Shown here: in pieces, positions 39,931 through 63,200 of the stretch
Numbering within the stretch: the first letter of the stretch is position 1
How the letters are laid out: each line of letters starts with the position of its first letter
DNA from: Candidatus Dormiibacterota bacterium
GTDB lineage: Bacteria; Chloroflexota; Dormibacteria; Aeolococcales; Aeolococcaceae
NCBI GenBank assembly: GCA_963718525.1
Contig: OY970355.1
Coordinates: 2,560,001 to 2,624,000 of the forward strand
Reading direction: 5' to 3'
Length of the DNA stretch: 64,000 nucleotides
Notes under the pieces: model-generated
What the model was told of the DNA's origin: nothing
The model's input: only the letters and a program-made list of their open reading frames with translations
The model's database searches: none
Made by a program: the position numbers and the translations under genes

Positions 39931-40047
39931 ACCCGGCAACGACCTACTCTCCCACCCCGTTGCCAGGGCAGTACCATCGGCGCTGGTGGGCTTAACTGCT
40001 GTGTTCGGGATGGGAACAGGTGTTTCCCCACCGCTATGATCACCGGA
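39931..40047 (-). rRNA. rrf: 5S rRNA
   Basis: CATAGCGGTGGGGAAACACCTGTTCCCATCCCGAACACAGCAGTTAAG...GCCGATGGTACT...GGGAGAGTAGGTCGTTGCCGG; flanked by complementary GAGAGATA / TATCTCTC. Confidence 0.97.
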
Positions 40048-40542
40048 TATCTCTCTCATGACGAGTGAGAACGCGAGTCTGGTCCACGGAAGCGGCGTCG
40101 CGCCGTCCGTCGGAGAATCCTAGTGCGCTACTTCGAGCGCTCTTGCCAGGCGTTGCACTTTCCTGCGGCGCCACCCTTGGCGCCATCCCACTAGTCGCTG
40201 AAAAGTGGGATAGGAGGTCAAGCCCTCGACCGATTAGTACCGCTCAGCTCAAAGAGTCACCTCTCTTACACCCGCGGCCTATCAACCAGATGGTCTCTCT
40301 GGGGTCTTACCCGGTTATCCGGTGGGAGATCTTATCTTGGAGTGGGCTTCGCACTTAGATGCTTTCAGCGCTTATCCCATCCGGACATGGCTACCCAGCG
40401 ATGCTCTTGGCAGAACAACTGGTGCACTAGCGGTCCGTCCAACCCGGTCCTCTCGTACTAAGGTCAGCTCTCCTCAAATCTCCTGCGCCCACAGCGGATA
40501 CGATCCGAACTGTCTCACGACGTTCTAAACCCAGCTCGCGTA

Positions 40543-40579
<37 letters not shown>

Positions 40580-40583
40580 ACTC

Positions 40584-40625
<42 letters not shown>

Positions 40626-40655
40626 TGCCGTCGATGTGAACTCTTGGGCAAGATC

Positions 40656-40692
<37 letters not shown>

Positions 40693-40849
40693 GACGGCCT
40701 TTCCATTCAGAGCCGTCGGATCACTATGCCCGACTTTCGTCCCTGCTCGGCTTGTCGGCCTCACAGTCAAGCTCCCTTACGCCATTACACGCCAAGGCCT
40801 GATTTCCATCCAGGCTGAGGGAACCTTTGGGCGCCTCCGTTACCGTTTG

Positions 40850-40882
<33 letters not shown>

Positions 40883-41161
40883 CCACGGTCCCGACACCGG
40901 ATAACGGCGCCGGTTAGAAATAAAATCCAGCAAGGCTGGTATTCCAAGGTTGACTCCACCGAACCTAGCGGCCCGACTTCACAGTCTCCCAGCTATCCTC
41001 TACATGCTGGACCCCATTTCAGTGGCAAGTTATAGTAAAGCTCCACGGGGTCTTTCCGTCCTGCTGCGGGTAACCTGTATCTTCACAGGTACTTCAGTTT
41101 CGCCGAGTACGTGGCCGAGACAGCGCCCATCTCGTTACGCCATTCGTGCGGGTCGGAACTT

Positions 41162-41919
<758 letters not shown>

Positions 41920-43355
41920 ATTTCAGAGCTTGCACCCCTCCACTTAACCTTCCGGCACCGGGCAGGCGTCAGCCCCTATACGTCAGCTTACGCTTTAGCA
42001 GAGACCTGTGTTTTTAGTAAACAGTCGGATGGGCCTTTTCTCTGCGGCCCTCGTCAGCTCACCGAGTAAATCGGATCACCGCCAAGGGCTCCCCTTCTCC
42101 CGAAGTTACGGGGACATTTTGCCGAGTTCCTTAGCCACGTTTCCCTCGATCGCCTTGGAATCCTCTTCCCACCTACCTGTGTCGGTCTGCGGTACGGGCG
42201 CCGTGGTTCTCGCTAGAGGCTTTTCTTGGAGGCATGGAACCGGCCCCATCGACACGAAGTGTCTTGGGATCCTTCTCGGAGTTAATGTCAAGCGGATTTG
42301 CCTACTTGACCTCCTACAAGGCTCCGTCGGGGACAACCGTCGCCCCGTCAGGCCTATCCTTCCCCGTTCCCCCATTGCTGATAACGAACCAGCGGCGGTG
42401 TTGGAATGTTGACCAACTGTCCATCGCCTACGCCTTTCGGCCTCGGCTTAGGTCCCGACTGACCCTGGGTCGATTAACGTAGCCCAGGAAACCTTAGGTT
42501 TACGGCGAACACGTTTCTCACGCGTTTCTCGCTACTTGTGCCGGCATTCTCACTTCTGTCCGCTCCACCCGTCCTTACGGTCAGGCTTCGCAGCAAACAG
42601 AACGCTCCTCTACCACGACCTTCCTGTGAAGGAAGGCCATCCACGGCTTCGGTTGCAAGCTTGAGCCCCGATCATTGTCGGCGCCACGACATTCGACCAG
42701 TGAGCTGTTACGCACTCTTTAAATGGTGGCTGCCTCTAAGCCCACATCCTGGTTGTCTGGACACCGTGACATCCTTTTCCACTTAGCTTGCGATTTGGGA
42801 CCTTAGCCGGTGGTCTGGGCTGTTTCCCTTTCGACGATGAAGCTTAGCCCCCACCGTCTCACTGCCGCCGGAAAGTTTGTTGCCATTCGGAGTTTGGTTG
42901 GGTTTGGTAACGAGGTGATCGCCCCTAGCCCATTCAGTGCTCTACCGGCCACAAACCCATCGACGACGCTGCACCTAAATGCATTTCGAGGAGAACCAGC
43001 TATATCCGAGTTCGATTGGCATTTCACCGCTATCCACAGTTCATCCGCCGCATTTTCAACTGGGGTCGGTTCGGGCTTCCACGCGGTCTTACCCGCGCTT
43101 CACCCTGACCATGGATAGGTCACTCGGTTTCGGGTCTACTCCATGCGACTACCACCACCATTACAGTGGTCACGCCCTATTCAAACTCGCTTTCGCTACG
43201 GCTCCGGGTGTCAACCCCTTAACCTCGCCACATGGAAGTAACTCGCCGGCTCATTCTACAAAAGGCACGCAATCAGGCATTCCCACTAGGGGCATAGCCC
43301 TCTCACGGCTTGTAAGCACACGGTTTCAGGTACTTTTAACTCCCCGTCTGGGGTG

Positions 43356-43401
<46 letters not shown>

Positions 43402-44134
43402 AGTATTCAGGCTTGGACGATGGTCCGCCCAGATTCCCACAGAATTCCACGTGTTCCGTGGTACTTGGGAGCTCTCAAAGGAGGTCGTGTGCCTTTCGCG
43501 TACGGGGCTGTCACCCTCTGCGGCCGGCTTTTCCAATGCCGTTCGGCTAGACAACGACTTTGTAACTCCTTGTCCCCTCGGCAGAAGGAACGCTGAGGTC
43601 CCGCGACCCCGAGACGGAAACGCCTGCCGGCTATCACGCCGTCTCGGTTTAGCCTCACCCCTTTTCGCTCGCCACTACTCAGGGGATGACATCTTTTCCT
43701 GCGGATACTTAGATGTTTCAGTTCTCCGCGTGCCCTCTACCCGGTCTATATATTCAACCGGGAGTACCTGGACATTCCTCCAGGTGGGTTGCCCCATTCG
43801 GAAATCCCCGGATCGAGTGCTTGCTAGCAGCTACCCGAGGCTTATCGCAACAACGCTACGTCCTTCATCGGCTCTTGGTGCCAAGGCATCCACCGTGTGC
43901 CCTTGGTAGCTTGACCTTTCCTATCGTCACTGTTCAATGACTGCAGGAGGCCTGGTGACGACGCTGCGTCACCACGACACGTGTTTCGCCTGGCTTGTTG
44001 TTTGTTATTGAGGATTCTCACTTGAACGCTGGACGACGGAAACCGTCCAGTGTTCTCGCAGACTCGCTATTCTCGTGTCAACGTGCAAACGACCGACCTT
44101 GAGGCCGGCTGTCGAGCGGAGGGGTCGTTGCCCG

Positions 44135-44207
44135 TGGAGATGGCCGGGCTCGAACCGGCGACCCCCTGCTTGCAAAGCAGGTGCTCTTCCAGCTGAGCTA
44201 CATCCCC
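44135..44207 (-). tRNA. tRNA-Ala(TGC), CCA not encoded
   Basis: GGGGATGTAGCTCAGCTGGAAGAGCACCTGCTT-TGC-AAGCAGG...GTTCGAGCCCGGCCATCTCCA. Confidence 0.96.
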
Positions 44208-44222
44208 GGACGGATACGAGCG

Positions 44223-44296
44223 TGGGCCTTTGTGGATTCGAACCACAGACCTCACGGTTATCAGCCGTGCGCTCTCACCAACTGAGCTAAAGGCCC
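44223..44296 (-). tRNA. tRNA-Ile(GAT), CCA not encoded
   Basis: GGGCCTTTAGCTCAGTTGGTGAGAGCGCACGGCT-GAT-AACCGTG...GTTCGAATCCACAAAGGCCCA. Confidence 0.96.
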
Positions 44297-44607
44297 GTGT
44301 GGGCCCGGCGCAGCCGGTCCCCTTGACCGCTGAAGCGTGGAGCGACATCCGCGAGGCGACGTGGTTGCCTCGGGCGCCTGGAGCACCGCGCTCCTGACGC
44401 GCATTTATTTCTGCAGATTCCCACTGCCTGCTGGCCGGCCTCCCCGCCACGCTTGCGCGTGGTGGATCGCGCCACATTACATCCCGGTATTCTTCGCGAT
44501 TGCTCGCTACTCTTCGCGGTTCTTCATGACGCGTTGCTGCACGGCTTGAGTTGACTGGTCCGTGCCGTGATGCGCATTGCTGCGCGTACGCACTCGGGCC
44601 ACTCCCT

Positions 44608-46116
<1,509 letters not shown>

Positions 46117-46321
46117 AATACGTCTGTGTCCCGGATAACCCGGGTCGTAGACATGCTTTGACGAGGCCTACGCCGGTCCGTGCGCTATCGCACGAGACCC
46201 AAGGCCGTCGCGGAAAGTCGTCTCCACTCTTCAAGTGTCAAGGTTCATGGCGCGCCAAGTCCAACATGGAATCCCTGGCAACGCGGCCGTCGGGAGCAAC
46301 CCCCGTACGGGCAACCCGCAG

Positions 46322-52305: not shown

Positions 52306-53454
52306 TTAACCCCGCACCACGTCAGGGGCCAGCAGCGCGACCCCGGCAGACGGCCGGATCTCGAACGTCTCGCCTCCCCCGCATGCCCCCGCCATCGCCT
52401 GCCGGCAGGCATCGGTGGCGCTCCGGTCGACGAGCGCGACAACGGTCCCGCCGAATCCCGCGCCCACGAGACGGGCTCCGGCACACCCAGGGACAGTCCG
52501 TGCAGCGCCCGCCACCGCGTCCAGGGTGGGAGTGCTCACCTCGTGCAGCTCGCGGAGCGATCGGTGGCTCGCCGACATCAGGCTGCCGAGCGCGCTGAGG
52601 TCCGCCCCTCGCAGCGTTCCAGCCGCCTCAACGGCGCGGACACTCTCTCCCAGCACGTGTCGGAGCCGCCGCGTGACGTTGGGCGGGAGTTCGGCCCCAT
52701 CAATTGCAGCCTCGGTCAGCTCCTGGCACGAGTCGACATGCAGCGCGGCAAGGCCCTGCTCTGTCTCGTCGCGCCGGCGCCGGTATTCGGCGGCACCGAC
52801 GTCGTGGTGGGTCCCCGTGTCGCAGCCCACGATCACGGCGTCCGGCCACGGCCATGGAACCTCGGATTCGGCGCCGGTGCGGCAGTCGAGCAGCAGCGCA
52901 CCCCCATCGGGGGCGTCCACGATTGCTCGCTGATCGAGTGGCCCGCAGGGGATGCCGAGCACATCACGCTCGGCGGAGAGCGCGACAGCGGCAAGCTCGC
53001 GAGGTGTCATCGCGGAACCCGTCAGCCGGAGGATCGCCGTCGTCATCGCCACCATGAGCGCCGCCGACGACGCGAGCCCTGCCCCGGCCGGAAGCGTCGC
53101 CGCGACGCCGACCTCGACTGGAGGTACATCGATCCCGCGAGACCGCAGGGCAACGACCGGGGCGAGCACCCGATCGGCCATATCGCCCAACGGTTCCGCG
53201 CTCGTACGGATCACCACGCTGCCGCGGCTCGCGACCAGGTACCGTGCGGCGTCGCTCCGACGCACAGCGACAGCAATCCCCAGATCCACACCGATGCAGA
53301 GCACGAACCCCCCGGCGTAGTCGACGTGCTCCCCAACCAGCGTGCAACGACCGGGTGCCCAGGCGGTCGCTGCGACCGGCCCGCGGCCGCCGGCCTCATG
53401 CAGTGCCGCGAGCGCCGCTGCCGAAGTCAGCCTGCTCGAGTCACCGATCGTCAT
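52306..53454 (-). CDS. galK: Galactokinase family (GHMP) sugar kinase
   Basis: APGRCTLVGEHVDY, PAGAGLASSAA, CGPLDQ, GARLVGAGFGG. Confidence 0.85.
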   Translation of the reverse strand: MTIGDSSRLTSAAALAALHEAGGRGPVAATAWAPGRCTLVGEHVDYAGGFVLCIGVDLGIAVAVRRSDAARYLVASRGSVVIRTSAEPLGDMADRVLAPVVALRSRGIDVPPVEVGVAATLPAGAGLASSAALMVAMTTAILRLTGSAMTPRELAAVALSAERDVLGIPCGPLDQRAIVDAPDGGALLLDCRTGAESEVPWPWPDAVIVGCDTGTHHDVGAAEYRRRRDETEQGLAALHVDSCQELTEAAIDGAELPPNVTRRLRHVLGESVRAVEAAGTLRGADLSALGSLMSASHRSLRELHEVSTPTLDAVAGAARTVPGCAGARLVGAGFGGTVVALVDRSATDACRQAMAGACGGGETFEIRPSAGVALLAPDVVRG

Positions 53455-54311
53455 ACACGTGATGGAACGGATACCACTGCTCGGGATGAGCACGGATCGC
53501 CGGCTCGACACTGGTGGCGATGCGGGCGATCACCGCAGCATCGTCGCCCGAGGCGTCGACGGGGGGATGGATCTCCAGCACCCATCCCCGCCCGTCTCGC
53601 CGGCACGTCACCGGGAGGATCGGTGCGCCGGTTGACGCCGCCAGGCGCGCGGGAACCGCGCTGCAGCGCACGGGGCCGCCGCAGAACGGCACGACGACGG
53701 TCGGTCCGGCTTCGGGCACGTCGAGCATCAGGGCGACGGTCCTCCCCTTTCGCAGCGCGCGAAATAGCCCTCGCGCGGACTGCCGCACCGTGAAAATCTC
53801 GAGGCCCTTGCGCTGCCGCGAGAGTGCCACCATCTCTGTGATCCCCGGCGACACGACCGGAGCCATCACGGTGCTGAGGTGGAGGCCGAGGCCAAGCGAG
53901 GCGCTCGCGGCCATGTCCCAATTGCCGAAGTGGGGAAGCACCACCATCGAGCCGCGGCCGCCGACGTCCAGGTGCTCTGCGCCATGCACTCGAAACAGCT
54001 CGAGCACCTGCCACGAGTTCGAGCGGGTCGGCCCACACCGAGTCCACGACCATGCGCACGTACTCCTGGTAGGAACGTCGCGCAAGCGCCACAGCCGCGG
54101 CATGGTCGAGGTGAGGCTGCAGGCGGTGATGGTTCGCGGCCGCGCGCACGCGATCCTCACTGCTCAGACGCGCATACCAGGCCGCTCCGACGACGGCGGC
54201 CGCCGGCCCGCGCATCGGCCCGAGCGCGCGGACCGCTCTGGTGAGGGCGCTGAGCGCGACGGCGGGGATGTCCCTGCCGGCTCCTGCCGGTCGTGCTTCC
54301 GGCGCTGTCAG
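53441..54311 (-). pseudogene. LpxL/PatA-like lysophospholipid acyltransferase with a frameshift near 54015
   Basis: N-part (...ARRSYQEYVRMVVD) and C-part (GAEHL...PHFGNWD...ALMLD...HPEQWY) are in different frames. Confidence 0.75.
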
Positions 54312-55795
54312 CGCAGTGTTCCGGCTCCCGCTGTCGCCACCGCGAGCAGCGGCTGGATCAGCACCACCAGCACCACGCCCGCAAGGCAGGCCGTACCGGC
54401 AACGATGCGAGACAAGACGGGTGTCGCCCCGAGCGTGAAGGGGACCGCATCCCCGGCATCCGCGTACAGCGACGCGATGAACCGCACCGCCGCGATCAAC
54501 GTCAACAGGCCGGCGGCGATCGCGACCACTGCCAGCCACCCATAGTGCGTGTCCGCTGCGCTCGAGATGAGCAGGATTCGCGACAGAAATCCCGCGAGCG
54601 GGGGCACGCCGGCGAGTGTCCCCACCGCGACGGTGAGCAGGAGCGCCGCGGGGGCCGATCGATGCGCCAGGCCGCGCAGATCGTCGAGCCCATCACCGAT
54701 TCCCGCGACCTGCAGCATCGCAAGCACGCCGAACGCCGCCAGCATCGCGATCACCGTGATGCCCAACCCGCTGAGGAAAGCGGTCACCCCATACGCCGGC
54801 AGCCCACGTGACCCGGTCGAGAACGCCAGCAGTCCAAGCAGGAGCATCGCCGTCTGCGTGCTGATCAGCTGACCGACAAGGCGGGCGACCGAGGTCTCAC
54901 GCAGCGAGCTCAGCGAGGAATACCCGAGCGCGACCGCCGCGACAATGGGTACGAGCCATCGCCAGACACCGACCCCGGGTCCGAAGCCCGAGATGGTCAC
55001 GCGCGCCAGCGCCGCCCCGCCGCCGATCAGGCTCATCGCGATGACGAATCCCGCCGCTGCCGCGGGCACATTGGTGGCAACACGCCCCACCCATTGCCGC
55101 AGCGGGAAGACGCCGAAGGTGCCGCAGAGTCCCAGAACGACGAGCGCGACACCGAGCGCCACTGCCCCAGGAGCTGCGTGCGCGGCGGCGGCGACAGCGG
55201 CGAGATTCGTACTTCGCGTGGTGCCGTAGAGGATCGCGAGTCCGTACACCACGGCGGCGAGCCCGACACTGCCTTCGATGAGGTGCTCGAAGGACGACAC
55301 CGCGCCGCGCGGGTTGGTCTTCACGAGCGCTCCGAGCGATACGAGACAGATCAGCAGCAGCGCGAGTGCAACGAACAGCGTGGTCATCTCGCGTTCGGCG
55401 CCGATCGCCTCAACCGCGGCGGTCGCAATCAGCAGGAGGCCATAGAACGCGCCCGTCCGCGCAGGGATGGTGCGCACGGCCGAGTCACTGATCAAACACG
55501 TGGTGAGCGCTGCGACGCAGGCCAGGATCGCGATGTACAGAGCAAAGCTGTCGACCACGAACCCGCCGTTCCACACCGTGATCGCAACCCCCGAACGCAC
55601 GTGGCGAAGTCCGAGCAGGACCAGGGCGCATGCTGCGAGCGACCCCACCAGTCCGATGCATGCGATCCAGCGGTGGATGTCCGGACGCAACCCTGGCCGG
55701 AGCACCGCGACGAGCGCAGAGATCGCAGCTGTCCCAACCAGCATCGCCTCGGGAAGGAGCGCGAGCGTCAGCGCGTGCGCGAAATCAGCGGGCAT
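54308..55795 (-). CDS. nuoN: Divergent NuoN-like antiporter-type subunit
   Basis: LLPE, D-F, YGLAILYGTT, GLAHRS, LAGVPPLAGF, about 14 TM. Key Glu/Lys absent (see findings). Confidence 0.8.
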   Translation of the reverse strand: MPADFAHALTLALLPEAMLVGTAAISALVAVLRPGLRPDIHRWIACIGLVGSLAACALVLLGLRHVRSGVAITVWNGGFVVDSFALYIAILACVAALTTCLISDSAVRTIPARTGAFYGLLLIATAAVEAIGAEREMTTLFVALALLLICLVSLGALVKTNPRGAVSSFEHLIEGSVGLAAVVYGLAILYGTTRSTNLAAVAAAAHAAPGAVALGVALVVLGLCGTFGVFPLRQWVGRVATNVPAAAAGFVIAMSLIGGGAALARVTISGFGPGVGVWRWLVPIVAAVALGYSSLSSLRETSVARLVGQLISTQTAMLLLGLLAFSTGSRGLPAYGVTAFLSGLGITVIAMLAAFGVLAMLQVAGIGDGLDDLRGLAHRSAPAALLLTVAVGTLAGVPPLAGFLSRILLISSAADTHYGWLAVVAIAAGLLTLIAAVRFIASLYADAGDAVPFTLGATPVLSRIVAGTACLAGVVLVVLIQPLLAVATAGAGTLR

Positions 55796-55798
55796 GCG

Positions 55799-57289
55799 CT
55801 AAGCCCCGGTGATCCGGGTGGTGATCTCGAGCACGCCGTTGGCGATCACCGGGATCACCGCCCCCGCGCGGAGTCCGAAGAGCAGCACAGCCGCGACCAG
55901 CGGGATGAGGACGGTCAGATCGAGGAGAGTGACATCACGCACGCGGGCGAACTGGTCGCGCACGGGCCCGAAGAAGACGCGATTCGCGACCCAGAGCAGA
56001 CCGCCGGTGATGACGATCACGCTGGCCATCACCAGCACAGTTGCGATCCGGTGCTCCGGGAACGAGCCGGCGAAGACCATGAAATCGCCGGTGAATCCCG
56101 CAAGGAATGGAATGCCGATGACGCTCGCTGCAGCAACCAGCCAGAACCCCGCAAGGCGCGGCGCCTGCGTGACCAACCCACCCATGGCTCGAATGCTCGT
56201 CGTCCGGGTTCGCTCCTCGATCGCGCCGCTCACCAGCGTGAGCATCGCCGACCCGAGACCCTGGCCGCAGAGGAGCAGGACGGCCCCGACCAGCGCCACC
56301 GACGTCTGCGCGCCGATTGCCAGGAGCACGAGCGACATCTGGGCGACATTCATGTATCCGATGAACCGGCGCAACTCGTCCTGCCGCAGCGCGCCGACGC
56401 TGCCCCAGAACGCGCCCACCACCGCAAGGCCCGTGATCGCGAACCCGTAGTAGTGCGCCGCCGCTGGGAAGACGACGAGGCTGATTCGCATCATCCCGTA
56501 GGCGCCGAGCAGCAGCATCGTCCCGGAAAGGATGGTCGCGACGCCGGCGCTCGCCTTGGTCTGCGCCTCGAGCATCCATGTATGCACTGGAAAGATGGCC
56601 ATCGCGATCGCGAACGCGGTGAAGCTCAGCCAGAACCCGACCGTTTCCGCCGTGACGGAGAACGTGGTCAGGTCGGCGGTCATGTCCGAAGACTGAGCAC
56701 CGGCTTCCACGACGATGATCACGACGGTTGCGATGATCAGCGCGAGCGACACCGCCTGGAAGCCCGCGAACCATGCCGCGGCGCGACGAGCACCCTCGCC
56801 GCCCCAGATCCGGATGAGCAGGTACATCGGGACCAGCAACATGGCCCAGAAGGCGACGAACAGAACGAAGTCCGAGGAGCACAGGACGCCGTTGACCGCG
56901 GTCTCGACGAGCAGCACGAGGATGACGTACAGACGCACCCGCTCGTGAATCTTCCAGGAATGGAACATCGCGCACCCGAAGATCGTCGTCACCACCACGA
57001 GCAGCGGGAGGCTGATGCCGTCGGCGACAAGGTCATAGTGGGCTTGGAACAGGAAGTTCCAGAACCAGGTGTGATTCTCCTGGTATGCGGATGCCAGGCC
57101 ACCACCCTGGCCGAGCCCGATCTGCCCCAGTATCGCGAAGAACGTCGTCACGAAGAAGCTGACGCCCGCACCGGCCAGGGCGACCGTCCTCACCCGTGCG
57201 CGTTCCTCGTCATTGCGCTCCGGGAGGAAGAGTGCGATCACCGCGAAGAGCAGTGGCGACCAGACGATGGTCGACAGGATCACGCTCAT
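55799..57289 (-). CDS. nuoM: Divergent NuoM-like antiporter-type subunit
   Basis: DGISL, PMYLLI.IWG, FPVHTW, GAYG, ERTRT...MGGL, GIPFLAGF, RVFFG. Confidence 0.85.
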   Translation of the reverse strand: MSVILSTIVWSPLLFAVIALFLPERNDEERARVRTVALAGAGVSFFVTTFFAILGQIGLGQGGGLASAYQENHTWFWNFLFQAHYDLVADGISLPLLVVVTTIFGCAMFHSWKIHERVRLYVILVLLVETAVNGVLCSSDFVLFVAFWAMLLVPMYLLIRIWGGEGARRAAAWFAGFQAVSLALIIATVVIIVVEAGAQSSDMTADLTTFSVTAETVGFWLSFTAFAIAMAIFPVHTWMLEAQTKASAGVATILSGTMLLLGAYGMMRISLVVFPAAAHYYGFAITGLAVVGAFWGSVGALRQDELRRFIGYMNVAQMSLVLLAIGAQTSVALVGAVLLLCGQGLGSAMLTLVSGAIEERTRTTSIRAMGGLVTQAPRLAGFWLVAAASVIGIPFLAGFTGDFMVFAGSFPEHRIATVLVMASVIVITGGLLWVANRVFFGPVRDQFARVRDVTLLDLTVLIPLVAAVLLFGLRAGAVIPVIANGVLEITTRITGA

Positions 57290-59316
57290 ACCAGGCGCAC
57301 CCAGAGGTGGCCTGTCGCGGCAAGCACCGAAAGCAGCGCGAGAATCCCGACGACAACAACAGCGCCGGCGAGGTACCGCGAGAACCGGATGCTCCGAATA
57401 GCCCCGAGTCCCAACGCGGCGTAGTCGACGCTCTCGCCCACCGATGCTTCGACGGGCGCGATGACCTGCTCGTCGAAGTCGGACACGCGGCCGGCCACGG
57501 CGAGCAGGGGCGGCGCCGCGATCTCCGTCAGTCGCTCGACGTAGAAGCCCTGCGCCGCAATGCGTATCGGCCATGCCGCGCGAACCGGCAACGGCACATC
57601 CCGGCGGGCCGGGCCGAACAGGAGGTATGCCACGCCGAAACCGCCTGCAGCGACAAGCAGGGCGAGGAGTGCCGCGATTCCATCCAGGCCGATCGACTGA
57701 TGGTGGCTCGCATAGAAGACGAAGCGCATGTACGTGAGGCCGGCGATGCGGGCACTGCCGATCGTGAACGGTTGCAGGCCGGGCAGGCCGACGAGCACCG
57801 CGACAACGGCAGCGATCAGGACGAGCCGCAGCGGCCGCCGGAGTGCGCCTTCAACCTCCGCAACCCGATCATGCTGGAATCCCCGGCGGCGACTCACCTC
57901 GCCGGTGGTCACGGTCAGGAGGAGCCGTGCCGCGAGCACCGCGACGAGCACGCCCGCGACCGCGGTGACGATGACGATGACCACGCGCTCGAGGACGCTG
58001 AAGACCCCACCGGCCGGGTCAACGCCGTTCAGCCCGGACGACAGGGCGTAGTAGCAGCTCAGGCCGACGCCGCCGGCAAGCAGCGCCCACGCGCCAAGGG
58101 CGACGCTGGTCGTGCGCAATTTCACCCACGCGCCGCCCATCTCTCCGATGTCGTCGGTGCGATAGACGCGGACGAGGTTGGCGACAGCGAGGAACAGCAG
58201 TGTCGACGTGAATATCGAGGTGAATGCGATGAACACGCCCGGGCTGTAGCCTCCCACGCCCAGCGTAACCACTGCCAGGCTGAGTTCCGAGGCGACGGCG
58301 CACACGGCGATGCGCGTGATGCTGCGCTGCGCGATCCCAGTCGCTGCAGTAACAACAGCGCTGAGGCCGCCCACCAGGGCGAAGACGGGAAGGGCCCGAG
58401 GGGTGTGGGCGACGACGGGGTAGATGCGTGCAACCAGGTAGAGACCAAGTGGCGCGACCGTGGCGCCGGCGAGGGCCAGAACCGGAATCGCCGACGATGC
58501 GGCGTCGCGCAGCCAGACGGTGAAGGGAAATTGAGCGCTGCGCACCGTGGCGGCGACGAGGAACACGATGCCCATCACGAGCAGGGCGCGCGGTCCAGTG
58601 CTGGCCACGCCGTGGTGCAGCGCGGCGATGACTCCCTGTGAGATCACGCTGAAGGAAAATGGATCCGCGATCGACTGTCCGGCCGGTGCGGCCAGCAACG
58701 ACGAGAAGACCCCGAACTTGATCCAGGTGAACAGGACTCCCAGGGTCAGCGCGATGTCACTCGCGGTCAGGATGATGGCGGCGCGCAGTGCGCGGCGCGC
58801 GATATCGGCGCGCTGCCATGCCAGCGTGAGCAGCACGTAGAGGACCGCTGTGGCTCCAACCCACATGATCAGCGAGTCGAAGAGGTTCGGGCTGAGCACG
58901 AAACCGGTCGTGCAGAAGGCGAGCACAGACGACCCGCAGAAGAAGCGCCGGTACCCCTGCTCGCCGCGCATCGCGGTGACCGAGTAGATCTGGATCACGA
59001 GGGTCGCGAACACGATCGCCGCGGCGAAGCTTGCCGAGAGAGAGTCGACGTGCACGCCGACCTGTGCCTGGAACTGCGTCGCAAACGTCGCGCCCTCCGG
59101 CGGGGTCATCGTGAAGAAGGTCAGCAGCGAGTCGAACGGTGCTGCAGTCGCGTGGGTCAGGCGGACGCCGAGCACGATGGCGGCCACGACGAACGACGCG
59201 CCGCTGAACACGACGCAGAGCTGCGCGGCGCGCCGCTGCGTCTCCACACCGAGGGAGGCGAGCGCACCGAGCAGCGGGAGAAAGGGAATCGCCCACGCCG
59301 CGTTGTAGATGCCCAC
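57286..59316 (-). CDS. nuoL: Divergent NuoL-like antiporter-type subunit
   Basis: PFLPLLGA, VDSLS, IYS..M, RFF, SAQFPF.VWL.DA, GLYLVARIYP, D..EMGG, FY.E lateral helix. Confidence 0.85.
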   Translation of the reverse strand: MGIYNAAWAIPFLPLLGALASLGVETQRRAAQLCVVFSGASFVVAAIVLGVRLTHATAAPFDSLLTFFTMTPPEGATFATQFQAQVGVHVDSLSASFAAAIVFATLVIQIYSVTAMRGEQGYRRFFCGSSVLAFCTTGFVLSPNLFDSLIMWVGATAVLYVLLTLAWQRADIARRALRAAIILTASDIALTLGVLFTWIKFGVFSSLLAAPAGQSIADPFSFSVISQGVIAALHHGVASTGPRALLVMGIVFLVAATVRSAQFPFTVWLRDAASSAIPVLALAGATVAPLGLYLVARIYPVVAHTPRALPVFALVGGLSAVVTAATGIAQRSITRIAVCAVASELSLAVVTLGVGGYSPGVFIAFTSIFTSTLLFLAVANLVRVYRTDDIGEMGGAWVKLRTTSVALGAWALLAGGVGLSCYYALSSGLNGVDPAGGVFSVLERVVIVIVTAVAGVLVAVLAARLLLTVTTGEVSRRRGFQHDRVAEVEGALRRPLRLVLIAAVVAVLVGLPGLQPFTIGSARIAGLTYMRFVFYASHHQSIGLDGIAALLALLVAAGGFGVAYLLFGPARRDVPLPVRAAWPIRIAAQGFYVERLTEIAAPPLLAVAGRVSDFDEQVIAPVEASVGESVDYAALGLGAIRSIRFSRYLAGAVVVVGILALLSVLAATGHLWVRLV

Positions 59317-59321
59317 CCGCG

Positions 59322-59636
59322 CTATGCCTCGACGTCGCCGAGGGCGTCGATATCGGCTCGCCCGGTCCGGCGCCAGAGCAGCACGATCAGAGCGAACCCG
59401 AGGCTGCAGACACAGGTCGCCACGACGATGGCGATCGCGGCGAGCGCGTCGCCAAAGGCGACCGGGGGCGCCTGGATTGCATGGGTGAAGCCGACGATGG
59501 CGATCACGGGTGCGGCAAAGAGGAGTCCGATTCCCATCACGACTCCAAGCGGATGGCGGCGAGCGAGCACCCCATACACGCCGATGGCGAAGACGACAGC
59601 GCTCAACAGCGCGAAGCCCTCCGGACCAGCGCTCAT
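59322..59636 (-). CDS. nuoK: Divergent NuoK-like subunit
   Basis: LSAVVFAIGVYGVLARR, three TMs, G.ALIVLLWRR...DID.L. Confidence 0.8.
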   Translation of the reverse strand: MSAGPEGFALLSAVVFAIGVYGVLARRHPLGVVMGIGLLFAAPVIAIVGFTHAIQAPPVAFGDALAAIAIVVATCVCSLGFALIVLLWRRTGRADIDALGDVEA

Positions 59637-60250
59637 GAGTCGCTCCTTGACGGGCGTCGCCTGCCCTGCTCGCGGTCCTCACGGCGCCTGCGCGCAAGCT
59701 CTTCGCGCTGCCGGCGCAGCTGGAGGTACTGGTCAAGCGTCTGCTCGTCGGTGCTCCGGCGTCCGATGACCAACCCCATAGCCGCGGTGATGATCACGAC
59801 AACCGCACTGATTGCCAGTGCGTAGGGTGCGCGGTAATGGAGCACCGTGATCAGCGCCGCGCTCTGGGTGAGGAGCGGAGAGTAACCCGAGAAGCCCGGG
59901 TACCAACCCGATCCGACGGCGGCCAGCGTCGCGATCAGCACCGCGGCGATACCCACGGCGATTGGTGCGGCGATCCAGAAGCGTTCAGGTCCAGCCGGCA
60001 CTGCGAGCAGCCCACGATAAGCGTCGCGCCGGAGCACCATTGTCACGACCACGGCGGCGACAGCCGGCACGACGAGTTGCACGACCGCGAGCGCATAGGC
60101 CCCTGAGATGAGCTCGAGGACACCCATGAGGACGATCACCGCCCCGCCCGCGTACCCGGCATGGCGCAGCGAAGGAAGCCCAACTGCGGCCCCGGCGGCA
60201 AGCACGATGAGCACGGCGACGGCATAGAACGCGATTGCGTTGGGGGTCAT
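59633..60250 (-). CDS. nuoJ: Divergent NuoJ-like subunit
   Basis: Five TMs, A..LAVVQ, Y..PY...S..; position upstream of nuoK. Confidence 0.7.
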   Translation of the reverse strand: MTPNAIAFYAVAVLIVLAAGAAVGLPSLRHAGYAGGAVIVLMGVLELISGAYALAVVQLVVPAVAAVVVTMVLRRDAYRGLLAVPAGPERFWIAAPIAVGIAAVLIATLAAVGSGWYPGFSGYSPLLTQSAALITVLHYRAPYALAISAVVVIITAAMGLVIGRRSTDEQTLDQYLQLRRQREELARRRREDREQGRRRPSRSDS

Positions 60251-60283
60251 AGGGTCGCGGGCGGCATTGTAGTCAGCGCGGGC

Positions 60284-60694
60284 TCAGACCGAATCGTCGT
60301 CTTCAAGCCGCGACGCCCGCGTCGGCGCCGCAATACGGACCGTGCCAGGGATGCGCTCGAAGATGAGCACCAGGCTGAGACCGACAGCCGCGATCAGCAG
60401 CCCGACGATCGCGACCGGCGTTACCCGGATGCCAATCAGCGGCAGGGACACCCCGGCGTCCCACGGTCCGGGTGTCGACGTCGAAGCCGCGGCTCCATAG
60501 CGCGCCACCGCGGAGGGGCTCGGAAACACTCGCTGCCCGACGACGCCCGCGACGAATGCCAGGCTGCCAAGGGTGCAGATGAAATAGAGCCAGTTGCCGC
60601 TGTGACGCGCTGCCACCGTGGACGTGGTCACCGCCAGGCAGCCGGCGAGCACCGCGACGATGCCGATCACGACCTGCTCGGGGGTCGGGGGCAA
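60284..60694 (-). CDS. Three-TM membrane protein
   Basis: Three hydrophobic segments; lies between mnmA and nuoJ. Confidence 0.65.
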   Translation of the reverse strand: MPPTPEQVVIGIVAVLAGCLAVTTSTVAARHSGNWLYFICTLGSLAFVAGVVGQRVFPSPSAVARYGAAASTSTPGPWDAGVSLPLIGIRVTPVAIVGLLIAAVGLSLVLIFERIPGTVRIAAPTRASRLEDDDSV

Positions 60695-60706
60695 CGCCGG
60701 CGCGCC

Positions 60707-61831
60707 TCAGGCGGCCCGGCGGACCAACCCGCCTCCGAGGACCTCGTCGCCGCGATAGAGCACCATCGATTGTCCCGGCGCAGCCTGGTCGACCGGGGCA
60801 TCGAACCTGACGCGCACGCCGGTGGCGTCGGTCGCCTCGATCGTCGCTGCGTGCGGCTCGCCGTGGGCCCGAAGCTGTGCATTGCATCGGGTCCCCTGTG
60901 CTGGGCCGCGACCCGAGACCCAGTGGAACGAGGACGCCTCGACAAGGCTGGAGCGCAGCGCTTCGCGTGGTCCGACGACCAGGGTGTTCGCGGCCGGGCG
61001 GAGTTCGATGACAAAACGCGGTGCCGCGTCGGGCCGCGACGGCGCAATCCCCAGGCCGGCACGCTGCCCCACGGTGAAGAACGGAAGGCCCTCGTGCTGC
61101 CCGAGCACCATGCCGTCGAGGTCGGTGATGGCGCCGGCTGAGAAACGTCCGGCGAGCCGTTGGCGCAGCTCGGACCTCATGTCAGTCTCGACGAAGCACA
61201 GATCCTGCAACTCGGGCTTGGCTGCCGTGACCAGCCCGAGAGCGGCCGCTTCCGCCCGGACGCTCGCCTTGGATTCGTCACCCCCGAGCGCGAACACAGC
61301 GCCATGCAACTGGTGTTGGTCGAGCCGGTGGAGCACGTACGCCTGGTCGCGGCGGAGGTCGCGTGCCCGGTGCAGTGTCGTCAGCGATCCCCTCCGGCCG
61401 GTGCGTGCGTAGTGGCCGGTGGCGAGATGGGTCGCCCCTGCGGCCCGAGCCCGCTCGAGCAGCACGCCGAACTTGATGCGCTGATTGCATCTCACGCAGG
61501 GGTTGGGGGTGAGGCCCTGCGCATAGCCGTCCTCGAAGTCAGCCACGACCTCTCTCTCGAAGTCCCGCTCGAGATTCCATACGTAGTGCGGGAGCGACAG
61601 CGCTGCCGCCACGCGGCGGGCGTCATCCACCGCATCGATCGAGCAGCACCCACGGTCGCGGACGCTTTCGCGGCTTCCCGGCCACATCGCAAGGGTGATG
61701 CCGAACGCGTGCAGACCGGTTGCCGCGACGCGGGCAGCAGCAACGCTCGAGTCCACTCCTCCCGACATCGCCACGGCGATCACCGACGATCGCGGCAGGA
61801 GATCCAGCGGACGGTCAGCGGCGACCGCCAC
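60707..61831 (-). CDS. mnmA: tRNA-specific 2-thiouridylase MnmA
   Basis: AMSGGVDSS, GCC, PNPCVRCN..IKF, ATGHY, DQ.Y, QDLCF, TVGQR.G, PGQ. Confidence 0.93.
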   Translation of the reverse strand: MAVAADRPLDLLPRSSVIAVAMSGGVDSSVAAARVAATGLHAFGITLAMWPGSRESVRDRGCCSIDAVDDARRVAAALSLPHYVWNLERDFEREVVADFEDGYAQGLTPNPCVRCNQRIKFGVLLERARAAGATHLATGHYARTGRRGSLTTLHRARDLRRDQAYVLHRLDQHQLHGAVFALGGDESKASVRAEAAALGLVTAAKPELQDLCFVETDMRSELRQRLAGRFSAGAITDLDGMVLGQHEGLPFFTVGQRAGLGIAPSRPDAAPRFVIELRPAANTLVVGPREALRSSLVEASSFHWVSGRGPAQGTRCNAQLRAHGEPHAATIEATDATGVRVRFDAPVDQAAPGQSMVLYRGDEVLGGGLVRRAA

Positions 61832-62102
61832 CTCCGGCAACGGCGGGGACGATCGATACCTCGTCGCGCTCGGCGATGGCGGTGTCGAGGCCCTGGGCGA
61901 AGCGGATATCGGAGTCATTGACATAGATGTTGATGAACTGCCGCAGGCTCCCGGAGTCGTCATACAGACGGTCGTGGAAGCCAGGATAGGTCGCATCGAG
62001 GTTGGTGAGCACCGCGCCGACGGTGTCACCCTCCACACTGACCTCGGCGCTGCCGCCGGTGAGCCTGCGAAGGGGTCCAGGAACGCGAACCGTGGTTGCC
62101 AT
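61815..62102 (-). CDS. MoaD/ThiS/CysO-family ubiquitin-like sulfur carrier
   Basis: TVRVPGPLR, FINIYVN..DIRF..GL.T, SIVPAVAGG followed by a GGRR extension. Confidence 0.88.
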   Translation of the reverse strand: MATTVRVPGPLRRLTGGSAEVSVEGDTVGAVLTNLDATYPGFHDRLYDDSGSLRQFINIYVNDSDIRFAQGLDTAIAERDEVSIVPAVAGGGGRR

Positions 62103-62124
62103 TGAGGGCCGAGTATACGGAGGG

Positions 62125-62493
62125 TCAGCGCCTTGGCCGCTTTGCCGTGTCACGTGCCGTGGAAATCGAACGCTCACCCGCAGGCCGAAGGCGTCCCGCG
62201 GCGCGAAGCTCGTCAATGCGACGGAGGTTGGCATCCGTCCAGTTGCTCTTCGAGCGCCGGGGGGTGAAGCGGAGCATGTAGGTCGCCTCGTCGACCCGCC
62301 GGATGACGCTGTCGATCCAGCCGTTGCACAGCGCCTCGTCGACCGCATCCGAATACGAGATCCCCGGTCGTTCGAATCCCTTCTTCCAGAATCCCACCCA
62401 CAGTTCGGACGCTGTCGGGTTCGTCTCGAACCACGCCGAGAGATCCTCCGGCGCCAGAAAGAACTCCGGACGCGAAGGGACGGTTGGGGTCAC
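62125..62493 (-). CDS. YdeI-like protein (N-terminal part only)
   Basis: W...KK...Y..AVDEALC.GWIDS...RFTPRR..S.W. Lacks the usual C-terminal OmdA domain. Confidence 0.75.
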   Translation of the reverse strand: MTPTVPSRPEFFLAPEDLSAWFETNPTASELWVGFWKKGFERPGISYSDAVDEALCNGWIDSVIRRVDEATYMLRFTPRRSKSNWTDANLRRIDELRAAGRLRPAGERSISTARDTAKRPRR

Positions 62494-63200
62494 GGCTCGG
62501 GTTCGAGATCGACGACGAGCGGGCTCTTGTCAACGCGGGTCCGGGCTCCGGCGACGAGGTCGTCGAAGACGAGTTGCGACCACGACTCCATGCTCAGGTA
62601 GTGGCGCCGCATTGCTTCCAGGGAGAGCGACTCCCCCTCGAGCTTCTCGAGCTCGCGCACTTCGACGATGCCGTCGGCCGGTTCCACGAGGAACACGAGC
62701 CCGAGGTGCACCCGCGACACGGGGCTCGAGTCATCGTTGAGCATCGCCACGAGGCTGGCGCGCGCCGGCGTCGCACAGCGGATCTCCTCGGCCCACTCGC
62801 GGCGGAGTCCGCCGACGACAGGATCCTCACGTTCCCCGTCTCCGGGATTGACGTGACCGCCGATCCCGAGGGAGTACAGGTGATGGAGACGCTTCTCACT
62901 CGATCGGCGCAAACGGCGGGTCAGCAGATACGTGTCGGCCTGCGGGTGATGGACGACGCAATAGGGAATGATCTGCTGGAGGGCGGGATCATCCTCGATC
63001 TCGGCCCGAGGTCTGTATTCGGAGGTTGCATGGACGGTTCGCAGGACACGCTCCAGCCCACGCGCGATCAGCCCGTGCCAGGCGCCGTCCGGAAAGATGG
63101 TCGAGCGCGGCACGCAGAGGACATCCTCCGCCTCGTGCGCACGGCTCCGCCGCGACCCGACGGCACGCGTTCCAGCCACGGTTCTCGGCACCGAGCGCAT
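62490..63200 (-). CDS. NUDIX-family phosphoesterase
   Basis: E.DP...QIIPY, E.RLH..YSLGIGGH, REWAEE, V..VHLG, MESWS. Confidence 0.82.
   Translation of the reverse strand: MRSVPRTVAGTRAVGSRRSRAHEAEDVLCVPRSTIFPDGAWHGLIARGLERVLRTVHATSEYRPRAEIEDDPALQQIIPYCVVHHPQADTYLLTRRLRRSSEKRLHHLYSLGIGGHVNPGDGEREDPVVGGLRREWAEEIRCATPARASLVAMLNDDSSPVSRVHLGLVFLVEPADGIVEVRELEKLEGESLSLEAMRRHYLSMESWSQLVFDDLVAGARTRVDKSPLVVDLEPEP

Follow-up and report, generated by a model that had tools for sequence, protein, structure and literature searches.

An orphan nuoJ-N cluster in Dormibacteria as a putative relic of a second complex I, retained without its redox module and proton-relay residues

What would keep a set of proton-pumping subunits in a genome that encodes no redox partner beside them and in which the residues that should relay the protons have been replaced? 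In complex I research, NuoJ to NuoN are regarded solely as the half of a redox machine that pumps protons, and a locus in a Candidatus Dormiibacterota bacterium (GTDB class Dormibacteria, family Aeolococcaceae; assembly GCA_963718525.1) makes that view worth reconsidering. We analysed a window of 64,000 nt, meaning the whole stretch from position 2,560,001 to 2,624,000 of contig OY970355.1, and gene coordinates below count from its start. On the minus strand, at 54308-60250, it holds five intact open reading frames (ORFs), spaced by -4 to +5 bases, whose products resemble NuoJ, NuoK, NuoL, NuoM and NuoN in that order; we call them the orphan genes. A Pfam scan of the window found no nuoA-I adjoining them. 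The comparisons described here suggest that this membrane arm outlived the enzyme to which it belonged.

As key residues of complex I, we took the Glu of transmembrane helix 5 that pairs with the Lys of helix 7, the central Lys or His, and the Lys or Glu of helix 12. They were mapped in MAFFT alignments of three sequences each, namely the orphan protein, its counterpart from E. coli K-12 (NC_000913) and the genome's own canonical copy. In E. coli numbering, the K-like protein has Gly at E36 and Val at E72. In the L-like protein, E144 is Val, K229 is Arg, D303, H338 and K342 are Ser, H334 is Ile, H254 falls in a gap and K399 is lost, while D178 is kept. The M-like protein has Ala at E144 and K234, Leu at K265, Gln at H322 and H348, and Asp at E407; the N-like protein has Ala at E133, Glu at K158, Thr at K217, Leu at K247 and Arg at K395; and in the J-like protein Y59 is Pro. 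Identity is low throughout (22-29% to the E. coli proteins and 25-35% to the genome's canonical copies), and the L substitutions were reproduced, independently of MAFFT, when the L family profile was aligned to the solved NdhF in the PDB. The initial annotation of this DNA, made by eye, had described five full-length, closely spaced genes in complex I order without adjoining nuoA-I, and had listed Glu, Lys and His residues missing from NuoK to NuoN and a Tyr missing from NuoJ. ORFs, Pfam and NCBIfam bear out the first description; every residue that it named is indeed replaced, and all the motif strings that it quoted occur in the translations.

For an unbiased count, free of any choice of key residues, we took the positions that are identical in seven intact complexes: the one of E. 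coli, the canonical sets of two Dormibacteria and four second clusters that are still intact, which are described below. The orphan set of this genome keeps 8 of the 40 invariant Asp, Glu, Lys or His positions, against 131 of 246 other invariant positions (polar 29/63, Gly/Pro 38/57, hydrophobic 64/126), a difference that is significant for protonatable versus all other positions (Fisher p 1.2e-4). Because the two classes survive so differently, residues of the fold appear to have been kept and those of the proton chemistry not, and the alignments indicate that the loss is preferential for protonatable residues, beyond chance.

All five proteins are recognizable as complex I subunits, to very different degrees. 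The J-like protein (59633..60250, 205 aa) has a weak NCBIfam match to NuoJ (E 6e-7) and no Pfam-A family at E <= 0.01. The K-like protein (59322..59636, 104 aa) matches Oxidored_q2 (PF00420) with 54 bits. The L-like protein (57286..59316, 676 aa, GTG start) matches PF00361 with 55.5 bits and PF00662 with 37 bits; the M-like protein (55799..57289, 496 aa) matches PF00361 with 136 bits and TIGR01972 with 313 bits; and the N-like protein (54308..55795, 495 aa) matches PF00361 with 58.4 bits. L, M and N thus exceed the gathering cut-off of PF00361 (Proton_antipo_M), which is 21.5 bits, and M is the best conserved of the five. The best NCBIfam families are NuoJ, K, L, M and N, respectively, with every equivalog score below its cut-off (J 28.7/192, K 56/57, L 177/556, M 253/585, N 133/523); the sole NCBIfam model passed is the subfamily TIGR01972, by M (against a cut-off of 263.8 bits). 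For J, an hhalign comparison of the orphan family profile with intact NuoJ covers transmembrane helices 1-3 (probability 96.9%, E 1.5e-10) and places a 4-residue deletion in helix 3, in the region of the 'YAGA' motif. The GC content at third codon positions (0.79-0.84, in a genome of 67% GC) supports the coding frames of K, L, N and the ORFs directly upstream; the J and M frames did not pass this filter. A scan of 53000-63000 for promoters and terminators returned no promoter-like site and two terminator-like sites, fewer than the shuffle mean.

The L-like protein spans the NCBIfam NuoL models end to end. Its AlphaFold2 model has a mean predicted local distance difference test score (pLDDT) of 73.7 and a predicted template-modelling score (pTM) of 0.80, with residues 590-676 below a pLDDT of 50 and a lateral helix predicted, at low confidence, at 593-625. 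Foldseek ranks NdhF, NuoL and ND5 chains highest, matching them along the whole protein with template-modelling (TM) scores of 0.7-0.8, and judged by this model the L-like protein retains a NuoL-type fold.

Does the genome also encode a complete complex I? The initial annotation had raised the presence of a second, canonical nuoA-N as a question, and one does exist. The genome is a single contig of 3.34 Mb, and a separate 14-subunit nuo operon lies about 0.6 Mb from the orphan cluster, holding the only NuoH copy. Searching by tblastn for a second nuoA, B, D or H, with the second-cluster proteins of a relative (G123, below), matched only this operon, at 1.995-2.003 Mb. Its subunits keep all the listed key residues except NuoL E144, and dN/dS, the ratio of nonsynonymous to synonymous substitution rates, is 0.00-0.16 for its J-N genes across eight same-genus genomes. 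The exception is a feature of its own: the canonical NuoL (C1:2004555-2006504) has Ala at E144, in the motif GWALVAL, in this genome and in 8/8 same-genus relatives, and the position is Ala or Ser in 5/5 genomes of family f2, one of them (G027) unpublished. These canonical NuoL proteins keep all the other key L residues. (Genomes, genera, families and fetched loci carry our own labels, beginning with G, g, f and L.)

Are the orphan genes, then, functionless leftovers that decay but have not yet broken? Residues essential to the ancestral function are gone, the orphan genes evolve faster than their canonical paralogues, and split tblastn matches resembling frameshifts occur in relatives: in J (L017) and in L and N (L023), and also in mnmA (L016, L022), a histidine kinase gene (L018) and galK (L019). 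Since mnmA and other flanking housekeeping genes are affected too, the apparent frameshifts in same-genus assemblies are probably assembly errors and not decay. The L-like gene is present in 22 of 24 other same-genus genomes, at 67-90% identity. Its absence from G004 and G008 was considered as a sign of dispensability and rejected, mnmA being missing there as well and completeness being 86% and 79%; the region is probably unassembled in both. The order mnmA-up136-J-K-L-M-N-acyltransferase is identical in 10/10 fetched same-genus loci, up136 being a small membrane ORF, and galK follows in 8/10 (L020 gives only a 49-residue match and L021 none). These same-genus tallies of L, like those given below for M across the phylum, for NuoH and for NDH-2, include the unpublished genomes G027, G032, G036, G213, G266, G307, G337, G345, G354 and G355, which supply no key locus; G027 was used for the canonical-operon map and the NuoL motif only.

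Pairwise dN/dS (NG86, relatives versus the window genes) is 0.11-0.42 for J, 0.08-0.20 for K, 0.14-0.24 for L, 0.05-0.14 for M and 0.09-0.19 for N. Only one orphan-J pair (0.42) exceeds 0.25; all others lie between 0.05 and 0.25 at dS 0.2-1.2, in the same range as the flanking mnmA (0.16-0.22) and galK (0.19-0.26). The cluster is also retained in the reduced 1.9-2.0 Mb genomes of genus g7, with dN/dS of 0.06-0.12 and with dS close to saturation in the more distant pairs, and across four families, at 24-45% identity, its ORFs are uninterrupted. These ratios indicate that the orphan genes are clearly under purifying selection, though evolving faster than the canonical paralogues, and plain decay becomes a very improbable explanation. 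The relatives, to which the initial annotation had pointed as a test of selection, therefore show intact genes under purifying selection in a conserved cluster, and no pseudogenisation, an outcome that would have told against its reading, was seen. Two further such outcomes are likewise absent: the profile alignments show no equivalent charges shifted by a turn, and the proteins do not belong to a known non-respiratory transporter family.

Where did a membrane arm without a redox module come from? We searched the M-like protein in 251 genomes of the GTDB phylum and then fetched the loci. In G123, of the same family but genus g6, the order is mnmA, an up136 homologue, an NDH-2-like ORF, nuoA-B-C/D-H-I-J-K-L-M-N and the acyltransferase. 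Two loci of family f5, G150 and G081, carry nuoA-B-C/D-H-I-J-K-L-M-N without E, F and G; nuoA of G150 is directly preceded by mnmA and a 93-aa membrane ORF, and in G081 mnmA is about 460 bases ahead of nuoA. The fetched locus of a third f5 genome, G093, covers J-N only, ending at J. The intact second clusters keep every key residue: in position order, E,E in K; E-D-K-H-D-H-H-K-K-D in L; E-K-K-H-H-E in M; E-K-K-K-K in N; and the Tyr of J. The truncated state, with J-N alone beside mnmA and no nuoA-I, is found in genera g5 and g7-g12 of family f1 and in f2, f3 and f4.

Among 121 Dormibacteria genomes searched for NuoH with Pfam, G123 and 10 of 11 f5 genomes are the only ones with a second full-length copy (E ~1e-100 to 1e-105). 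Additional, weaker NuoH-like matches (E 1e-26 to 1e-40) occur in some genomes, for example at C1:364254-365156 of the same-genus genome G331 and at C2:500898-501797 of G316, and these could come from a hydrogenase-type module or another one that resembles complex I. For f4, the M search had suggested that the cluster is absent; this was rejected, as three weakly scoring PF00361 genes accompany the three canonical ones in 5/5 f4 genomes. A diverged L-M is present in all three f4 loci fetched; tblastn identified N in two of them and family profiles in 3/3, J and K were recognised in two (G105, G240), and mnmA adjoins in two (G069, G240).

Because complete orthologous loci exist in G123 and f5, and no second full-length NuoH was found elsewhere, the orphan cluster is best read as the remnant of a second complex I. 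Synteny and sequence together show that the five genes (NuoJ2-K2-L2-M2-N2) are the membrane arm left over from a second complex I-like enzyme, one with 11 subunits and no NuoEFG. This enzyme, encoded after mnmA, is ancestral in the class Dormibacteria, and the genes of its quinone and redox half and of its proximal membrane subunits, nuoA2, B2, C2, D2, H2 and I2, were deleted in the lineage studied here.

The number of such deletions bears on what the arm is worth. In an IQ-TREE phylogeny of M proteins from loci of known gene context, the canonical M proteins (100/99) stand apart from a second-cluster clade (100/99) that mixes intact and truncated loci. Within this clade, the intact f5 branches first, then the truncated f3, then a group of the intact G123 with all truncated f1 and f2. 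The truncated state requires two changes in 200/200 bootstrap trees, and monophyly of the truncated sequences is rejected by an approximately unbiased (AU) test (p 0.0035), for a group that was named after a quick tree had been inspected and in a single gene tree whose degenerate sequences sit on long branches. If the tree holds, truncation would have occurred at least twice, and the retention of the same five genes after each loss of nuoA-I argues for a value of the arm alone.

M-like sequences lacking the key residues are also found more widely. A phmmer search with the M-like protein, run exhaustively, retrieved 19219 proteins (E <= 0.001). Most key residues are missing from the full-length representatives with the highest scores; one of these, P0122 (48% identity), has all six, as G123 does. 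Lower in the ranking, where canonical proteins prevail, the best 150 representatives include other NuoM-like proteins that lack several of the six and lie outside the Dormibacteria orphan clade: P0144, P0145, P0163, P0182, P0185, P0200, P0208, P0244 and P0246.

Across the truncated lineages, the erosion is graded. G263 and G204 keep most of the N residues and part of those in L, with N reading E-K-K-x-K/R. Family f3 keeps much of L and N (L reading x-D-K/R-H-N-x-H/Q-K-K-D), but not NuoK E36 or NuoM E144 and E407. Nearly all key residues are lost in g8, g5, g12, g9, g7, f2, f4 and the genus studied here. The replacing residues differ among lineages. Positions conserved in truncated clusters (18 M, 17 L, 17 N and 13 K sequences) but not in intact ones are limited to M R307, L W167 and L R386. 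What recurs is the exchange of Lys for Arg, at L K229 (this genus, g8, g5, g12, g7, f4 and one f3), at M K234 and K265 (f4, f2, g10, some f3, g7, g8 and g5) and at N K395 (this genus, g8, g10, g12, g9 and f2), and L D178 is kept almost everywhere among the truncated clusters.

Since the substitutions are graded and lineage-specific, without a new shared motif, the pattern reads as relaxed constraint on proton transfer combined with a retained constraint on buried charges for folding, and not as selection for new chemistry. The best-conserved subunit also shifts, from K in pairs of intact clusters to M in pairs of truncated ones, which is consistent with relaxed proton-transfer constraint. The initial annotation had argued, from the concerted loss across five genes, for selection on a non-pumping arm. 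A selected arm without relay residues stands; selection for removing the charges does not, and relaxed constraint after deletion of the redox half takes its place, because clusters with nuoA-I keep all key residues and truncated ones lose them variably.

The same graded series bears on whether the arm is still a transporter, that is, a stand-alone, Mrp-like machine that moves ions via non-canonical residues, or else a lipid, a polyprenyl compound or quinone. The partly degenerate relatives (G263, G204 and f3) keep much of the L and N network, the hydrophobic segments still hold some Asp, Glu, Lys and His and more Arg, and the neighbouring genes have an envelope or isoprenoid flavour, with an acyltransferase here and a polyprenyl synthase in f2. 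These neighbours vary by family, however, and MrpB, E, F and G-like genes are absent from the packed cluster. In the genus at hand, the few surviving protonatable positions and the loss of both NuoK glutamates speak against ion movement, and, with no new residue common to the truncated lineages beyond the three named above, a new shared chemistry is unlikely. Residual transport fits the less eroded lineages better than this genus, and for the cluster as a whole we consider it quite improbable.

A different possibility is that the orphan J-N proteins are swapped onto the canonical NuoA-I, giving an NADH:quinone oxidoreductase with little or no proton pumping, which would act as a decoupler or redox valve. 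The arm keeps J, K and N, the subunit set that contacts NuoH and NuoA, and every truncated-arm genome checked has one canonical NuoH or nuo operon with which a hybrid could form; the account of Streptomyces in PMC9239103 proposes, without proof, a nuo/nuo2 hybrid there. Against this, J and K, which would form the interface with NuoH and NuoA, have lost relative constraint (J dN/dS up to 0.42, no Pfam match, a short helix 3), and orphan J is only 25% identical to canonical J. Spero et al. 2015 (PMC4453560) describe complex I subunits as lost or transferred jointly, with pressure against hybrid enzymes. Uncoupled NADH oxidation would also duplicate what NDH-2 does: 92 of 121 Dormibacteria genomes, in a patchy distribution, have an NDH-2-like gene, among them many truncated-arm genomes and four of six same-genus ones. 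The converse idea, that the degenerate arm substitutes for NDH-2, was rejected on the same survey, which shows no anticorrelation across the 121 genomes. Of the roles that the initial annotation had offered (a swap-in decoupling or proton-sealing module, a scaffold, or a transporter of another substrate), the evidence leans to a scaffold-like or stand-alone arm and weakly against a swap-in, which we regard as unlikely.

We are left with a stand-alone, non-pumping relic arm that is kept for its structure, a reading that we hold to be somewhat probable. In this account, the redox half (nuoA2-I2) was deleted, and the five membrane genes stayed intact while losing most of the Glu, Lys and His network. 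Without redox module and relay network, pumping of protons, whether redox-driven or of the Mrp type, would be impossible. The five proteins would most likely still assemble as a J-K-N-M-L arm, a stand-alone 'pseudo-pump', and the benefit would come from its shape and contacts, perhaps by scaffolding or organising other membrane proteins, rather than from ion transfer. The Lys-to-Arg exchanges and the retained L D178 suggest that buried charges required for folding were kept in a form unable to shuttle protons. A broader possibility, to which we give rather less than an even chance, is that the membrane arm has a cellular function of its own, independent of the redox module and of proton transfer, such as organising the membrane, taking part in respiratory supercomplexes or handling hydrophobic ligands; such a function would explain why the arm was retained intact at least twice independently in Dormibacteria.

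Several observations weigh against a purely structural arm. G263, G204 and f3 retain 56-62% of the invariant protonatable positions, and these less degenerate truncated lineages might still move ions. A crude, hydropathy-based count of Asp, Glu, Lys and His in transmembrane cores did not separate intact from degenerate proteins (Arg alone was higher in the degenerate ones), and as hydrophobic segments show no general depletion of charge, other, non-canonical polar paths may exist. Orphan J, K, L and N have dN/dS values two to three times those of their canonical counterparts, M being about equal, and the near-saturated dS of distant pairs and the limits of the M tree given above apply to the evidence for selection and for repeated truncation. 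Every truncated-arm genome also keeps a canonical nuoA-N, which is compatible with a hybrid enzyme. Finally, the scaffold role is reached by exclusion, and its partner is only hypothetical.

Upstream of the orphan cluster lies mnmA (60707..62038, minus strand), encoding a tRNA 2-thiouridylase and assigned by Pfam and synteny, which adjoins the second nuo cluster, complete or truncated, in loci of all five families sampled. Downstream lies a Lip_A_acyltrans-family acyltransferase gene (53441..54160, minus strand), also assigned by Pfam and synteny and common to this locus and the complete cluster of G123; beyond it, Pfam identifies galK, a histidine kinase gene, dnaX, ybaB and recR. Between mnmA and J is up136 (60284..60694, minus strand), a 136-aa membrane ORF 33 bases upstream of J with no Pfam or NCBIfam match, which adjoins mnmA in 10/10 same-genus loci. 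That up136 might be a degenerate NuoA standing in nuoA's place was ruled out: G123 has an up136 homologue (51% identity) together with its own nuoA2, and f5 carries its 93-aa membrane ORF ahead of nuoA2. What is conserved is its place next to mnmA, and as a subunit up136 would be a candidate at most.

In line with independent truncations, the gene upstream of J varies, being up136 in f1, an FNR-like gene in f3 and a polyprenyl synthase gene in f2. The f3 gene, of the ferredoxin-NADP reductase type and 259 aa long, lies between mnmA and the truncated J-N (L044:977-2182, L049:1395-2174, L047:15661-16440), and the polyprenyl synthetase gene occupies the same interval in f2 (L025:3589-5547). The NDH-2-like ORF of G123, a pyridine nucleotide-disulfide oxidoreductase gene between the up136 homologue and nuoA (L052:1982-3439, minus strand), has no match in the genome studied here at E <= 1e-5. 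Elsewhere in the window, an rRNA operon whose spacer encodes two tRNAs spans 39931-46118 and holds a 23S rRNA gene (40214-43916, minus strand) of 3703 bases that matches the 2925-position Rfam model over its full length, the roughly 780 extra bases being an insertion, intervening sequence or intron.

How does this arm compare with systems already described? Relative to the canonical P-module (E. coli 7z7s, 3rko; Thermus 4he8; Mycobacterium 8e9g), it shares the five subunit types and their gene order, has an L fold matching at the TM scores given above, and conserves Gly, Pro and many structural positions. It differs in having lost the Glu of helix 5, the Lys of helix 7, the central Lys or His, the Lys or Glu of helix 12, the NuoK Glu pair and NuoJ Tyr59, and in having no redox partner encoded alongside. 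The Mrp (CPA3) antiporter is likewise a stand-alone membrane complex of NuoL, NuoM/N and NuoK homologues, and weak NCBIfam matches to MrpA, C and D occur here. The best matches of the orphan proteins are nevertheless Nuo, and the five-gene cluster, which is where mrp genes were sought, holds no MrpB, E, F or G, nor does its 676-aa L-like protein, collinear with the NuoL models throughout, carry the C-terminal domain of MrpA. Mrp function also depends on Lys and Glu residues, and these are absent from the orphan arm.

Complex I-like enzymes of 11 subunits without NuoEFG are a known type, treated in PMC3144371 and PMC11238625. The orphan M falls inside the clade of Dormibacteria second-cluster M proteins (100/99), and its locus is orthologous to theirs by its flanks, mnmA and the acyltransferase gene; unlike that enzyme, the orphan set is without nuoA, B, C, D, H and I at the locus, and its proton-relay residues are replaced. 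Streptomyces has a second, incomplete nuo cluster of unclear function, nuo2 (SCO4599-4608), beside the canonical one. According to PMC9239103, NuoC, D, E, F, G and L are missing from nuo2, which therefore keeps A, B, H and I, unlike the Dormibacteria cluster, which consists of J-N only and includes L. The literature searched, main texts as distinct from supplementary files, held no description of a membrane-arm-only nuo cluster depleted of these residues, and a selected, complex I-derived module that is reduced to its arm and has no relay would appear to lie outside the described repertoire.

For the biology of complex I, the long persistence of this arm under selection, without a redox partner or relay residues and also in small genomes, argues for an unrecognised role independent of pumping. 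Dormibacteria hold orthologous clusters in every state, complete, partially eroded and wholly eroded, within one class, and this series separates residues that serve coupling only from those that serve folding or assembly, as the Lys-to-Arg exchanges and the retained L D178 illustrate. There is also a practical consequence, as source annotations name these proteins 'NADH-quinone oxidoreductase subunit L' and similar, and counting the orphan set as a second pumping complex I would overstate the respiratory capacity of Dormibacterota in metabolic reconstructions. If the arm does have a function of its own, the Dormibacteria, with clusters that grade from intact through partly to fully eroded, would be a natural setting for finding it.

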